DNA of 32,000 nucleotides from an uncultured Clostridia bacterium. GTDB taxonomy: Bacteria; Bacillota; Clostridia; TANB77; CAG-508. Below are positions 12,840 to 16,547 of the stretch, piece after piece. The stretch lies in NCBI GenBank assembly GCA_904419495.1, contig CAJFRV010000001.1:1-32000 (forward strand), written 5' to 3'. Each line of letters opens with the position of its first letter. Position 1 is the first letter of the stretch. Made by a program: the position numbers and the translations under genes. Below the pieces are notes generated by a model that ran no database searches, had not been told where the DNA came from, and worked only from the letters and a program-made list of their open reading frames with translations.

Positions 12840-12969
12840 GTGAGGCGGAAGCCGATGTTATCGTTGCTGTTAGCCGGATTGTTGTTGTTACGATTGGAAG
12901 CTGGATTGTTAGAACCTGTATTGTTGTAATTACCTCCTCGATTAACACGATTGTTAGTGTTGTAAGACT
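12840..12969 (-). repeat. DGR template repeat (TR)
   Basis: This 130-bp copy of the VR carries A on the coding strand at every mismatched position. Read in the VR frame it encodes 17 AAY (Asn) codons. It lies 72 nt downstream of the RT stop. Confidence 0.92.
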
Positions 12970-13041
12970 TTCGATTTATCCCTATTATTCTTTTGATGAT
13001 TTTTTTATTATAATTGAATATTAATGCAAAAAATAAATAAC

Positions 13042-14067
13042 TTAATTTATATCATCATCTTCTTGATAAAATAATTTACTTTCTAAATTATATGTATTGG
13101 CAATTTTTATATATCCTAAATGACCTGCTAAATATTTATATGCTTCTTTACTTGTCATTTTTCCTTGTTTTATATCTTTCTTTAATTGTTTTACCTTTTC
13201 TTTCAGCTTTCTTTTTCCTTTATCTCGTATTTTTAGACGATATGTATTAATTTTATATCCGCAAAAATTAACTCCCTGTTTTGATTTAAATATTTGTGTC
13301 TTTTTGTTTAACTCCAATTCTAAATTCATCTTTAGAAAAGTTTTTATTTTCTCTAATATCTCTTTTGCTTCTTGCTTAGTTTTTACAAATAATACACTAT
13401 CATCCATATAACGAAAATAGTATTTTACTTTTAATATATGTTTTATATATTGGTCTATTTCATTTAAATAAATATTTGCAAACATTTGTGATGTATAGTT
13501 TCCAATTTCTAATCCTTTCTCTCTTTTTTGTGCATATAAAATTTCTTTTATCAGCCATAATACATCTTTATCTTTTATTTTTCTTTTCAAAATTTTTAAT
13601 AATATCGTTTTATTTATATTATCAAAATATTTCGCAATATCCATTTTCAAGATATAATAGTCATTCCATATTCTTTGACAATGTTTCATTTCTTTTTGTA
13701 AATCTAAACAAGCTTTATGCATACCTTTTCCTTTTAAACAAGCATAAGATGTACTAATAAATTGTGGTATAAATGCTGGTCCTAGAAAATTATCTACTAA
13801 CCATCTGTGGATAATTCTATCTATATATTTTGATTTTTCTATCTTTCTAAGTTTAGGTTCTGTTACATAAAAAGTACTATATCCTCCATGTTTATATGTT
13901 TTATTCTGCAACTTTTCCAGTAACCACATAATATATTCTTCTTGTTTTAAGTTAAACAAAATAATTTCTTTTCTATAGCCTTTGCCTTTTCTGGATTTAG
14001 AATGTGCTTCTAATAACTTATCATAGGTTAAATATTTAAAATATAAATTTCTAATTGTTTTTGACAT
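13042..14067 (-). CDS. DGR-type reverse transcriptase
   Basis: 341 aa with RT motifs PKLRKIEKSKYIDRIIHRWL, SYACLKGKGMHKA, ILKMDIAKYFDNI and YFRYMDDSVLF (YMDD). It also has the DGR-specific motif-4 signature LEIGNYTSQMFANIYL ([I/L]GxxxSQ). It overlaps the Avd-like ORF by 17 nt. Confidence 0.93.
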   Translation of the reverse strand: MSKTIRNLYFKYLTYDKLLEAHSKSRKGKGYRKEIILFNLKQEEYIMWLLEKLQNKTYKHGGYSTFYVTEPKLRKIEKSKYIDRIIHRWLVDNFLGPAFIPQFISTSYACLKGKGMHKACLDLQKEMKHCQRIWNDYYILKMDIAKYFDNINKTILLKILKRKIKDKDVLWLIKEILYAQKREKGLEIGNYTSQMFANIYLNEIDQYIKHILKVKYYFRYMDDSVLFVKTKQEAKEILEKIKTFLKMNLELELNKKTQIFKSKQGVNFCGYKINTYRLKIRDKGKRKLKEKVKQLKKDIKQGKMTSKEAYKYLAGHLGYIKIANTYNLESKLFYQEDDDIN

Positions 14068-14437
14068 AATATTTTATAAGTCCTCCTAATATTTTCCCTA
14101 TTTCATATATAAGTTCCATTGCTATTTTAAATTTCTTTTCATCAATCCATCTGTTCTTTTTCATAATTCTTAAGTAGATTCTTTGTGTATTTAACTTACT
14201 ATCAATTCTATTTAATATGTCTAAGATTTTCATTGCTTCTTGATTAGATTTATTTTTTATCTTATTTAATATCATAATTTCGCTTAACATTTGATACATA
14301 CTTTGCTTATATTCTGTTCCTATACTAAATTTTTCTATCCTTGGTAGCTTTATCATAATCTCCAACATATATTCTATATATCTTTCTGATTTTGGTATTA
14401 AAGCCAGTTTACTATCTTGTTCTTGTTTTAAACTCAT
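14051..14437 (-). CDS. avd: Accessory variability determinant (Avd)-like four-helix-bundle protein
   Basis: 128 aa, basic and helical (..LIPKSERYIEYMLEIMIKLPRIEKFSIG..). Its size, position immediately 5' of the RT and overlap with it are typical of bAvd / 23S-rRNA-IVS family proteins. AAGGAG RBS. Confidence 0.8.
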   Translation of the reverse strand: MSLKQEQDSKLALIPKSERYIEYMLEIMIKLPRIEKFSIGTEYKQSMYQMLSEIMILNKIKNKSNQEAMKILDILNRIDSKLNTQRIYLRIMKKNRWIDEKKFKIAMELIYEIGKILGGLIKYYVKNN

Positions 14438-14492
14438 ACTAATTCTCCTTGTTTCTTTATTATAATTTCATTTTTCTTCGTAATTAGTCGTT

Positions 14493-14918
14493 CTATCTAT
14501 ATTTTTTCAATTCGTCCTCATATAATTTTGATAAAGCTACGATATATTTATCTGGTTTTTTGTACTGTTTTGTACTATTAGGACAGGTATAACAATTCAT
14601 ATTTTCAATTTCTAAAGTATTTTTATTTTTTCCTATATAACTTTCAAATATATTTAATTCTTCTTTTTCTTGATCAAAATCATATACTATAAAACTATAT
14701 CTTTTTTCTGCAAGTAAATTTGTATATTTTTCTAATGAATTGACTGGAAATCCAACTTTGCATATTTTAGGTTTTATACAACTTATTTTTAATCCTATCA
14801 GATGATTTAGTAAAATAGCATCTTTACCAATTGCTACATAGAAATTTCCTAAATTGCATATAACAATTTTTCCTCCTTCTCTTTTTTGTAATATTTTCAT
14901 CATTTCACAAAATCCCAT
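14493..14918 (-). CDS. Small MutS-domain-I-like protein (putative DGR accessory ORF)
   Basis: MMKILQKREGGKIVICNLGNFYVAIGKDAILLNHLIGLKISCIKPKICKVGFPVNSLEKYTNLLAEKRYSFIVYDF aligns by eye to the E. coli MutS N-terminus [46 protein letters not shown]...[29 protein letters not shown]. The ORF lies between the target and avd on the same strand. Confidence 0.6.
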   Translation of the reverse strand: MGFCEMMKILQKREGGKIVICNLGNFYVAIGKDAILLNHLIGLKISCIKPKICKVGFPVNSLEKYTNLLAEKRYSFIVYDFDQEKEELNIFESYIGKNKNTLEIENMNCYTCPNSTKQYKKPDKYIVALSKLYEDELKKYR

Positions 14919-14970
14919 TTTATTTCACCACTTTCTATATTTTTTCGTGTCATTTTTTGTACTTTTTAAG

Positions 14971-15008
14971 CAGAAAAAACGCCACGTTAGTGGCGCCACG
15001 TTAGTGGG
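14971..15008 (-). terminator. Tandem GC-rich hairpins downstream of the DGR target gene (terminator and/or DGR cis element)
   Basis: GCCACGTTAGTGGC (14981-14994) and GCCACGTTAGTGGG (14995-15008) form a direct 14-bp duplication. Each is a CCAC/GTGG stem with a 4-nt loop. On the minus strand the proximal hairpin is followed by TTTTTTCT. Confidence 0.6.
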
Positions 15009-15167
15009 AATTTTTCTTAATTTTGCAAAATCCGTTTTTCAAACGTATTTTGTTAAATTTTGAAAAATTCCTCCCTTAACGTCTAAAGTCGTTAAGTTTT
15101 ATATTAAATTTTTACTTTTAAAATTATTTTATTTACCCTTCAAATTATACGGCTAAAGCATTCAGCT

Positions 15168-16547
15168 TTACAAATATAAAGTGAGGCGGAAGCCGATGTC
15201 ACCGTCGCTGTCAGCCGGACTGCAGTAGAAACGATAGGAAGCTGGATAGCCAGAACCTGTATAGCTGTAATTACCTCCTCGAAAAACACGAAAGTCAGTG
15301 TCGTAAGACTCCATTGTCCATTCATAAACATTTCCTGCTAAATCATAAATATTTTTCACATCATAATCATCACTTGCTCCGGTTGTTGTTACTTTTCCCT
15401 TCCAAGAGTTTGCATTTTCATCCTCGCTATAATTTCCTTTTCCTGTTGAATCTGCTACAAAATTCTTTTCTGCTACTAATTCTTCTGCTTTATTTTTATC
15501 TTTATATCTTGGCTCTATCCATGCCATAATAGCATCCCATTGCACTCCATAGATTAATGTACTTGTAACTGATGTATAACCTTTTTCATTTGCAAATTCT
15601 TTTGCCTTCTGCACTGCTCCTCCCGTTTCATTTGTCATATTATTACTATTTGACCAACCTATATAATTATATACATTTGCTCCTTGTTTAACTACTACAT
15701 CATCTGTAATTCCAGAACTACTTGTTCTTTCTTCTGTGCTTGCTGTTCCTGCTTCATATCTTCCTACATAAAATCCATTATGCTCTAATACACTTTCTTT
15801 CATTGCATTATATTCATCAACTTCATTTACATATCCATTCTCATATGGCTCTTTACAATCACTTAGTATTGAATCTATATCTCCATCAAAATATCCTTCA
15901 TAGGTTTTAAATGCACTATCATCTTCTACTGGCACCCATACAAATTGATTTCCTTTTAATGTTTTTGCCACTTCCCAACTTGTTCCTTTATTTTCATCAT
16001 TTGGATCATCTGATATAACTATTCCTTCTGCTTTACTTCCTCCTACATAATAAAATCCATCTGGGATTGTTACTCCTTCTACTATTGTTTCTGTATTATC
16101 ATTTCCACCATTATCTCCTACACTTGTACTTCCATTTCTATTTATCGTTACATCATATCCATCCACATTTACTGTATCTGGCAAACTCGTTATTTTATTA
16201 CTATCAGATATTGGACTTCCTTTATATGTTAAATTGTCTATCTTTTTTAGCTCATTATTTAAAGTATCCATATTAATTTTTCCATCTGTTCCTATACTTG
16301 CTGCTACTGCTAATTTTACTTGTTCTTCTGCATTTGCCCTTTTCGTATCTTCACTTGCTTCCTGTGCCTTTGTTAATATTCCATTATCTCCTGTTAGTGT
16401 TGCAATTGTTACTCCTGCTAGGATTAATAAGACAATGATTGTTATGACTAATGCTATTAATGTGATTCCTCGTTTTTCTTCTAATTTTTTTATTCTGTTT
16501 ACTTTCATCTTCATATCTTTGCTTTTTTCCTTTCTGACTCTTTCCAT
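15168..16547 (-). CDS. DGR target protein: N-terminal pilin-like signal anchor, central domain, C-terminal FGE-sulfatase/C-type-lectin-fold domain carrying the VR
   Basis: 459 aa. The N-terminus is KRGITLIALVITIIVLLILAGVTIATL. The C-terminal half carries FVWVPV, GFYVGRYE, GVQWDAIMAWI and YDLAGNVYEWT...FRVFRGGNYSYTGSGYPASYRFYCSPADSDGDIGFRLTLYL. A GGAGG RBS lies upstream. Confidence 0.9.
   Translation of the reverse strand: MERVRKEKSKDMKMKVNRIKKLEEKRGITLIALVITIIVLLILAGVTIATLTGDNGILTKAQEASEDTKRANAEEQVKLAVAASIGTDGKINMDTLNNELKKIDNLTYKGSPISDSNKITSLPDTVNVDGYDVTINRNGSTSVGDNGGNDNTETIVEGVTIPDGFYYVGGSKAEGIVISDDPNDENKGTSWEVAKTLKGNQFVWVPVEDDSAFKTYEGYFDGDIDSILSDCKEPYENGYVNEVDEYNAMKESVLEHNGFYVGRYEAGTASTEERTSSSGITDDVVVKQGANVYNYIGWSNSNNMTNETGGAVQKAKEFANEKGYTSVTSTLIYGVQWDAIMAWIEPRYKDKNKAEELVAEKNFVADSTGKGNYSEDENANSWKGKVTTTGASDDYDVKNIYDLAGNVYEWTMESYDTDFRVFRGGNYSYTGSGYPASYRFYCSPADSDGDIGFRLTLYL
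15181..15310 (-). repeat. DGR variable repeat (VR), last ~43 codons of the target gene
   Basis: 130 bp aligned to the TR without gaps. There are 22 mismatches, all where the TR has T on the + strand (A on the coding strand). The shared GC-rich 3' end ACATCGGCTTCCGCCTCAC is IMH-like. Confidence 0.92.

Follow-up and report, generated by a model that had tools for sequence, protein, structure and literature searches.

The diversity-generating retroelement (DGR) of Bordetella phage BPP-1, arranged as mtd-avd-TR-brt (TR, template repeat), has been seen by cryo-EM (8ub7-8ube), which assigned roles to the RNA around the template: a 9-bp tetraloop hairpin just past the TR binds the accessory protein Avd, a duplex joins the upstream and downstream TR flanks, and a TR:spacer duplex positions the priming nucleotide; Avd hairpin and flank duplex together were predicted in 207 of 278 Avd-containing DGRs (bioRxiv 10.1101/2023.10.23.563531). 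In their main text, Wu et al. (2018, PMC5758913) named the MutS-like accessory protein MSL and defined Architecture D, to which 16 of their 372 DGRs belong, and DGRs of Bacteroides also encode Msl (bioRxiv 10.1101/2024.11.15.621889). The RNA motifs RT-1 to RT-19, in turn, were published merely as motifs near reverse transcriptase (RT) genes, with RT-10, identified as the TR-RT spacer of Bordetella, the only one linked to a DGR (Weinberg et al. 2017, PMC5737381). The locus considered here lies in a stretch of 32,000 nucleotides from an uncultured gut Clostridia bacterium (contig CAJFRV010000001.1, positions 1 to 32,000; hereafter the window). It is a genuine and complete DGR, recently active and of a kind already known; the best explanation, to which we assign a probability of about 0.93, is a chromosomal, MSL-containing DGR (Wu et al.'s Architecture D) encoded wholly on the minus strand. 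Such systems alter, by reverse transcription, the tip of a single surface protein.

The core of the case is a pair of repeats (Table 1). MAFFT aligns the TR with the variable repeat (VR) in 130 columns with zero gaps, and a repeat search returns the same pair, extending as 12836-12969 and 15177-15310, as the strongest direct repeat within 11-18 kb. The homology has sharp edges at 12839/15180, where one extra common T precedes divergence, and at 12969/15310. On its minus (coding) strand the TR consists of 47 A, 36 C, 28 T and 19 G, and all 22 mismatches with the VR fall on a TR adenine (11 A>G, 11 A>T, 0 A>C), an outcome with P = 6.3e-12 for 22 randomly placed mismatches that would all have to land on the 47 A positions. 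Fourteen of them occupy codon position 1 and eight position 2, with none at position 3. Read in the VR frame, the TR holds 17 AAY codons (10 AAC, 7 AAT), inside which 21 of the 22 mismatches lie, and every one of the 17 changed VR codons is non-synonymous. No A-to-C change occurs among the 22 substitutions of the window VR; C does occur in other alleles of the same VR, and its absence here is probably a matter of selection or chance.

The GC-rich 3' end ACATCGGCTTCCGCCTCAC is the same in both repeats, whose last 19 nt are free of mismatches. It resembles an initiation of mutagenic homing (IMH) sequence, but IMH and IMH* are identical here, and the sole GC-rich inverted repeat is terminator-like and stands ~185 nt downstream. 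According to the main text of Wu et al. (2018, PMC5758913), DGRs with identical IMH and IMH* exist, and by their count a GC-rich inverted repeat follows the IMH in only 34% of DGRs. A scan with the A positions as wildcards found no further VR-like copy or remote target on either strand of the window. An earlier note on this DNA, made from the letters, had proposed the gapless pairing and placed every mismatch on a minus-strand adenine, and the computed alignment and mismatch table bear out both statements, with no mismatch at any other base; its 22 mismatches were counted correctly, whereas its plus-strand totals of 48 T and 82 other bases should be 47 and 83. The two translations that it quoted are exact, the 17 AAY codons are there, and the shared GC-rich 3' end is indeed identical in the two copies.

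The genes between and around the repeats tell the same story. On the minus strand the order is target, a 249-nt spacer, MSL, avd, RT, a 72-nt gap and TR. The RT matches Pfam RVT_1 (E 2.9e-19), and its closest solved relative is the Bordetella DGR RT (bRT; 8ub7_A, E 3.7e-36, 128.6 bits, residues 1-329), the best group II RT (GsI-IIC) reaching 84 bits (E 1.3e-22). Both LEIGNYTSQ and YMDD are present in the 341-aa open reading frame (ORF), and IGNYTSQ aligns with IGSLTSQ of bRT. The form IGxxxSQ is the signature of DGR RTs, unlike the group II form. Consistent with it, I181, G182 and Q187 have been named as conserved (bioRxiv 10.1101/2023.10.23.563531). The Avd ORF matches Pfam bAvd (E 7.9e-17, 62.1 bits against a cut-off of 40) and, below the equivalog cut-off of 80, NCBIfam DivGenRetAVD (67.4 bits). 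The MSL ORF matches Pfam MutS_I (E 7.8e-07, 29.7 bits against a cut-off of 20.6), and HRDC found no match in the Pfam search of the window proteins, so that the cassette has the make-up of Architecture D: a small MutS-domain-I protein together with avd, and no HRDC match. MSL is found in 71 of 80 related loci, a set kept from 248 relatives that a genome scan detected in species-representative genomes.

Compared with the Protein Data Bank (PDB), the single MSL sequence found no match, and MutS was reached by the family profile alone, which aligns with domain I of Taq MutS (1ewq; E 4.7e-05) such that G-x-F-Y stands opposite GDFYE. The invariant F26 of MSL falls on the Phe of GDFYE, which we take to be the residue with which MutS stacks on a mismatch; in place of the Glu stands Val or Ile. 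Cysteine is near-invariant at four positions (C47, C53, C109 and C112; 44-45 of 47 family sequences), which suggests a putative metal (zinc) site. These cysteines have no counterpart in the aligned MutS domain I, the first pair falling on residues other than Cys and the second beyond the alignment. The protein is basic (isoelectric point, pI, 8.9), as is its family (median 8.9).

The C-terminus of the acidic target protein (pI 4.6) belongs to Pfam FGE-sulfatase (E 8.8e-08, residues 365-455, above the gathering score), and the VR makes up the last 43 codons but four of its gene. At its N-terminus, KRGITLIALVITIIVLLILAGV, there is a hydrophobic prepilin-like helix (residues ~25-47) with sub-threshold matches only (N_methyl, 14.6 against 21.2 bits; GspG, E 0.012; PilA); Geobacter pilin chains give E 0.2-0.3, and the prepilin motif G/FTLxE reads RG/ITLIALV, with Ala in place of the conserved Glu. 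The target is at least membrane-anchored or secreted, with a variable lectin-like tip. What the earlier note had said of the cassette stands throughout: the RT is a DGR RT by its motifs and by its nearest solved relative, which is bRT and not a group II enzyme; the Avd-like and MutS-like ORFs score above the gathering thresholds of bAvd and MutS_I; the order target-MSL-avd-RT-TR follows from the ORF list; and the profile searches it had proposed, with RVT_1, Avd and FGE-sulfatase models, all returned matches, the last of them at the C-terminus of the target.

Table 1. Features of the DGR locus (window coordinates; aa, amino acids)
Feature	Position	Strand	Remarks
Target (variable protein) gene, 459 aa, pI 4.6	15168..16547	-	FGE-sulfatase end carries the VR
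VR	15181..15310	-	ends 11 nt before the target stop codon; 22/22 mismatches at TR adenines
IMH-like GC-rich VR 3' end ACATCGGCTTCCGCCTCAC	15181..15199	-	equals TR 12840-12858
Structured spacer, target gene to MSL	14978..15167	-	7-bp hairpin, AU-rich hairpin, terminator-like hairpin
MSL accessory protein, 141 aa, MutS domain I homologue	14493..14918	-	Pfam MutS_I
Avd accessory protein, 128 aa, pI 9.7	14051..14437	-	bAvd; 3' end overlaps RT start by 17 nt
DGR RT, 341 aa, IGNYTSQ and YMDD	13042..14067	-	RVT_1; 8ub7_A match over residues 1-329
AGGGAUAAAUC, 5' strand of TR-bracketing helix	12973..12983	-	partner GAUUUAUUCCU at 12764-12774, 11 bp
TR, non-coding	12840..12969	-	72 nt past RT stop; 47 A; 17 AAY codons in VR frame
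RT-14 RNA (Rfam RF02921)	12690..12840	-	100 bits; first base = last TR base
orf83, 83-aa SSB-like OB-fold protein, pI 9.0	12381..12632	-	starts 57 nt past RT-14

Has the element been at work recently? The evidence comes from comparison between public contigs and strains, not from reads of one sample. The exact RT protein occurs on 13 public contigs; one of them, L001, is 100% identical to window positions 7042-20067, and L001-L005, which represent five samples, have flanks 98.8-100% identical and the same VR. At least 5 samples, with 11 contigs between them, contain the exact target protein with the window VR allele (P0121). L001-L008, L012-L014 and L021 all share the TR of the window, whereas the VR differs from that of the window by 25 nt in L008, 19 nt in L012 and L013, and 23 nt in L021, in each case exclusively at TR-A positions; in L008, L012 and L021 this amounts to a VR divergence of 15-19%, against 0.8-1.2% in the flanks. 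Four target proteins, P0121 of the window together with P0293, P0294 and P0295, share the same first 415 residues and end in four distinct VR peptides, the differences being confined to VR codons that hold an A in the TR. Relatives with an 88%-identical RT have a TR of their own and a VR with 24 A-only differences. We read this as repeated replacement of the whole VR in the recent past, that is, as the trace of a working element whose alleles can sweep and persist.

The reading that survives best beside it, improbable in our estimate, is that of a fossil DGR, in which the cassette is intact in sequence, no diversification takes place in the window strain and the VR is a frozen, selected allele. 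It could draw on the identity of the window allele across its 11 contigs and on the unchanged VR of L001-L005, whose flanks differ by up to 1.2% among five samples. Since, however, a flank divergence of 0.6% predicts only ~0.8 VR differences by ordinary mutation, identical VRs do not show inactivity; moreover, the cassette is whole in all five ORFs, its TR and its RT-14, the protein identical over its first 415 residues is found with at least three other VR alleles, and strains 98.5-99% identical in the flanks bear wholly different VRs next to an unchanged TR.

Two observations on the VR stand apart from this argument. A VR allele at L007:4757-4891 (P0303, P0304) has a 1-nt insertion and hence a frameshift, leaving a target of 451 aa that ends in ...SIRGIRRSGLQPR; it is found in more than one cluster (P0304 represents 9 sequences) and thus persists in some populations, and VR indels of this sort, opposite AAC, are described in the main text of Wu et al. 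(2018, PMC5758913). Furthermore, 9 of the 52 loci with a VR lie on contigs that end 50-200 nt from it, where ~1 would be expected (L026, L041, L042, L043, L044, L068, L077, L084 and L100; also L006, L009 and L011). Heterogeneity of the VR or paralogous targets could have broken these assemblies; as proof of heterogeneity the breaks were rejected, being suggestive at most.

The 80 loci all come from metagenome-assembled genomes (MAGs) of uncultured gut Clostridia or Bacillota, e.g. Clostridium sp. CAG:567 or CAG:354-like, and in ~50 of them the TR directly follows the RT, the VR lies ~2.2 kb upstream and mismatches occur almost only at A sites. Several MAGs hold two cassettes (L022 with L026, L023 with L025, L028 with L034); in L058, L059 and L060 a second VR is seen in a second target gene downstream of the cassette. 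The window cassette is flanked by replication genes, with gyrB (26664-28592), recF (28605-29699) and dnaN (30443-31561) upstream on the same strand and gyrA (9348-11804) downstream. Could it then be a phage-borne or mobile-island DGR for tropism switching, recently inserted between gyrB and gyrA? Many DGRs are phage-borne, as the main text of Wu et al. (2018, PMC5758913) states, and the gap of ~14.9 kb between the two gyrase genes holds a VirB4-like ORF, a TraD-like ORF being located at 4171-5703. We nevertheless consider a mobile origin of this kind highly improbable. The cassette adjoins gyrA in 15 of the 80 loci, all from species-level relatives with a gyrA of 85-100% identity to that of the window, which makes it an old, vertically kept chromosomal insertion and not a recent island; the earlier description of an island splitting gyrB from gyrA is therefore right about the flanking genes but not about the island. 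The cassette has no phage structural genes beside it. Identity to the nearest IMG/VR RTs is only 29-40%, and not one of the 80 viral loci concerned contains MSL, orf83 or the RT-14 core; when 50,697 phage records were compared with orf83 and MSL by tblastn, there were zero matches; and a membrane- or pilin-like N-terminal helix is not the layout of a tail fibre. Finally, the view that there is no DGR at all, merely an ordinary diverged duplication of a 3' end near a retron- or group II-type RT, for which one might quote the NCBIfam models for group II (130 bits, the cut-off being 300), retron and Drt3a, all of them matched below threshold, is effectively refuted by 22 mismatches that all fall on one base (P 6e-12), by a TR copy that is non-coding and invariant between strains, by recurrence of the A-site pattern in ~50 related loci, by the higher score of the RT with bRT (128.6 bits) than with the best group II RT (84) and by Rfam, which finds RT-14 only and no group II or retron RNA.

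The orientation of the locus merits comment. GC skew of the plus strand is uniformly negative over 9-32 kb, and the target shares the strand of dnaN, recF, gyrB and gyrA; it is thus oriented away from where the origin presumably lies, and the lagging-strand template would be the strand to which the cDNA is complementary. In a reconstitution in E. coli, closeness to oriC together with co-direction with replication improved the editing of targets 7.6- to 24.6-fold (PMC12875486), a result that the placement here fits. Because other copies in the lineage lie elsewhere, we treat the origin-proximal placement as a noteworthy coincidence and not as a rule.

RT-14, which flanks the template, the SSB-like ORF downstream of it and the structured spacer, both described below, were missing from the earlier note and are added here. 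The match to RT-14 spans the whole model (positions 1-144 of 144) and scores 100 bits, the gathering score being 48.1, and RT-14 was found at the TR 3' end in all 9 related loci tested with Rfam (84-121 bits). In almost every locus with a repeat pair its start, CTCTAATA, lies 0-8 nt, usually 1-4, before the end of the TR/VR homology; L083 is an exception, with the start 8 nt past that end. Covariation was assessed on a neutral MAFFT alignment of 72 sequences. A 9-bp stem with a UAAG or UACG tetraloop (12799-12820; UAAG in the window) shows 99% pairing, and 7 of its 9 pairs have compensatory changes; for a 13-bp 3' hairpin (12690-12738) the figures are 92% and 11 of 13. A conserved segment that is unpaired in the Rfam model, GAUUUAUUCCU, is complementary to AGGGAUAAAUC on the other side of the TR, and 52 of 53 loci have a motif of the latter type, starting ~14 nt before the TR. 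Across the 15 distinct sequence combinations, 164 of 165 cells of this bracketing helix pair, and compensatory double changes occur at 7 of its 11 positions (AGGGAUUCAUC with GGUGAAUUCCU being an example). A further, possible helix joins CUCUAAUAC (12832-12840), i.e. the last TR base plus UCUAAUAC, with GUAUUAAAGAG (12774-12784) and is 98.9% paired. It shares its 5' strand with the P1 stem of the Rfam model, which is 76% paired on the same alignment, probably owing to a 1-nt alignment shift; tandem duplication of the 3' partner (RUAUUA) prevents a choice between the two. By analogy, RT-14 and the bracketing helix would correspond to the elements of the Bordetella DGR RNA.

Downstream of RT-14 lies orf83, a candidate accessory gene of this DGR lineage. 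Homologues follow RT-14 in 66 of the 80 loci by tblastn, and a hidden Markov model (HMM) of the family finds them in 70 of the 71 loci with enough downstream sequence, one of the 70 being inverted. As gyrA adjoins in just 15 of 80 loci, orf83 travels with the DGR and not with gyrA. The window protein scores 13.5 bits with Pfam SSB (PF00436; cut-off 26, E 0.076), and 37 of 49 family members match that model at E <= 1, all below threshold, the best with 5.2e-07; for the family profile the best PDB match is an SSB (E 0.052). The best AlphaFold2 (AF2) model, built on a 5-sequence alignment, has a predicted local distance difference test score (pLDDT) of 94, the other four models 37-52, and in Foldseek it finds the SSB domain 3koj first (TM score 0.85, E 8.6e-06) and then dozens of SSB and PriB chains. 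The predicted fold is a beta-beta-beta-beta-alpha-beta-beta OB fold that superposes on SSB domains; being under the Pfam threshold, orf83 is SSB-like in fold and not a member of the SSB family. The family comprises ~220 clusters at 50% identity, almost all of 70-110 aa. Our literature search, which was incomplete and did not extend to the supplementary tables of Wu et al., found no link of an SSB-like gene to DGRs. Two other neighbours were considered as DGR genes and rejected: orf96 (11994-12284) occurs in 15 loci, 14 of them with gyrA, the fifteenth perhaps ending before gyrA, and hence goes with gyrA, and a helix-turn-helix gene (17041-17379), considered as a regulator, is present in only 5 of 80 and has no general link to the DGR.

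What could mark the recipient, when both repeats end alike? With IMH and IMH* identical, a recipient-marking element is required somewhere downstream of the VR. The 190 nt past the target stop codon fold with z = -5.35 relative to shuffled sequence and are conserved between species. They include a 7-bp hairpin and a long AU-rich hairpin (arms 15007-15037 and 15041-15071), with covariation in the former (hairpin 1) and at the base of the latter, and after the AU hairpin come CCACTAACGTGG and the terminator-like GGCGCCAC-TAAC-GTGGCGTT with its T-run (14978-14997). A sequence of the form CCAC-NNNN-GTGG CGCCAC-NNNN-GTGGCG with a T-run is located ~180-215 nt past the VR in 14 of 52 related loci, and Rfam has no match for the spacer at 14978-15167. 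The GC hairpin behaves like a terminator, though one unusually conserved in sequence, and it could also serve as the recipient-marking element. Contig L005, otherwise 99.9% identical, is without exactly 101 nt of the spacer (relative to window 15000-15100); this deletion takes the long AU hairpin and brings the terminator-like GC hairpin to ~85 nt from the VR.

By analogy with Bordetella, the following course of events may be envisaged. A transcript containing the 5' flank, the TR and RT-14 would fold such that the 11-bp helix closes the TR into a loop, and the 9-bp tetraloop hairpin just past the TR would bind Avd. The RT-Avd complex would then prime in cis from RT-14, near the TR 3' end, and copy the TR into cDNA with misincorporation opposite A, which in the 17 AAY codons gives many amino acids and never a stop codon. 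Finally, homology would let the cDNA take the place of the VR, with the GC-rich end common to both repeats as the anchor. More speculatively, the MutS-domain-I protein might protect the heteroduplex of cDNA and VR, dense in mismatches, against the mismatch repair of the host, and the small SSB-like orf83 protein might bind the single-stranded cDNA. Since retrohoming in Bacteroides ovatus is held down 5-10 fold by host MutS, and this in an all-or-nothing manner (bioRxiv 10.1101/2024.11.15.621889), a domain-I-only MSL that competes for the heteroduplex is a reasonable role to propose. It is tempting to go one step further and to see in the lineage a distinct architectural variant, in which orf83 as a mini-SSB would protect the cDNA, a Cys4 MSL would block MutS, RT-14 would be the priming and processivity RNA that loops the TR via the upstream motif, and orf83 and MSL would both raise retrohoming, the three parts forming a dedicated cDNA-handling module that DGR classifications do not contain; this we put forward tentatively, leaning slightly towards doubt.

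Several points weigh against the preferred reading of a complete and recently active DGR, or against parts of it. The IMH-like ends of TR and VR being identical, that end alone cannot separate donor from recipient, and the sole GC-rich inverted repeat is the terminator-like one ~185 nt past the VR; its counterpart in the Bordetella phage is found just beyond the IMH. The recurrence of the window allele on 11 contigs from at least 5 samples may mean that diversification is rare or switched off in the window strain. A promoter scan is uninformative in DNA so rich in AT (42 matches, 39.9 expected). The priming site, the binding of Avd and the roles of MSL and orf83 are inferences, and the link of orf83 to SSB is sub-threshold in Pfam, with one of five AF2 models confident.

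The surroundings of the cassette have some peculiarities of their own. Between the DGR side and the VirB4-like gene, ~5 kb (18218-23400) are extremely AT-rich (GC 8-16% per kb) and T-rich on the plus strand, with overlapping degenerate tandem repeats of periods 13-144 and few ORFs of at least 80 aa, one of them of 358 aa; related contigs align to this region in registers shifted by ~0.6-1.2 kb, at ~68% identity. The VirB4-like ORF (23432-25117, minus strand), a conjugal-transfer ATPase, covers model positions 214-730 of 752 and may be truncated N-terminally; it and the TraD-like ORF, a weak match to coupling proteins on the plus strand, look like remnants of a conjugative element around the dnaN-recF-gyrB...gyrA origin region. 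In the gap between orf96 and gyrA (11932-11998) there are two tandem hairpin copies, CGTGATTAAATCACG and CGTGATATTATCACG, each followed by a T-run, which score as plus-strand terminators although the neighbouring genes are on the minus strand. A tRNA cluster (Thr-TGT, Glu-TTC, Lys-TTT) is encoded at 3070-3335 on the minus strand.

As such, the DGR call is an ordinary one, given that DGRs are common in gut Firmicutes and cassettes with MSL have been classified already. What is worth following up is RT-14 with its bracketing helix, the linked SSB-like ORF and the structured spacer past the VR. The orphan Rfam family RT-14 gains a functional home as the 3' flank of a DGR template, and a TR-bracketing helix backed by covariation supports the generality of the Bordetella DGR RNA architecture. 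In a lineage as large as this (248 species-level relatives), the gene for a small SSB-like protein becomes the nominee for a near-universal accessory factor, and orf83 and MSL offer a testable handle on the least understood step of mutagenic retrohoming, namely how the cDNA withstands exonucleases and mismatch repair and comes to replace the VR; compact accessory factors that raise efficiency would also be of interest to those who engineer DGRs for directed evolution. In addition, the locus is a natural example of an origin-near target co-directional with replication, the most efficient configuration in the E. coli reconstitution.

Set beside the BPP-1 DGR, the locus has much in common with it: the nearest solved homologue of its RT, with IGxxTSQ and YMDD aligned, an Avd partner, adenine-specific TR/VR differences and AAY-rich TR codons, a VR at the C-terminus of a C-type-lectin-like domain, a 9-bp tetraloop hairpin just 3' of the TR and a helix that joins the upstream and downstream TR flanks. 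It differs in that IMH equals IMH*, with no GC hairpin directly past the IMH, and in being chromosomal and equipped with the additional genes for MSL and an SSB-like protein. With Architecture D, as the main text of Wu et al. (PMC5758913) presents it, and with the Bacteroides DGRs that encode Msl, it shares a small MutS-domain-I protein (reported range 112-283 aa) next to avd and without HRDC; yet its MSL is basic (pI 8.9) where that of Architecture D is near-neutral and has four near-invariant cysteines, and it adds orf83 and RT-14, neither of which is mentioned in the main texts on those systems. The match to RF02921 is full-length, and the 9-bp and 13-bp stems covary as in the model, whereas RT-14 abuts the TR in the loci tested and its 'unpaired' segment pairs upstream of the TR, outside the Rfam model. 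Like the OB-fold proteins of the bacterial SSB and PriB type (PF00436; 3koj, 6bhw, 1txy), orf83 has a predicted OB fold and weak but consistent SSB matches; in contrast to them, it measures ~80-90 aa, has no C-terminal tail, constitutes a family of its own and is encoded after a DGR RNA instead of among replication genes.

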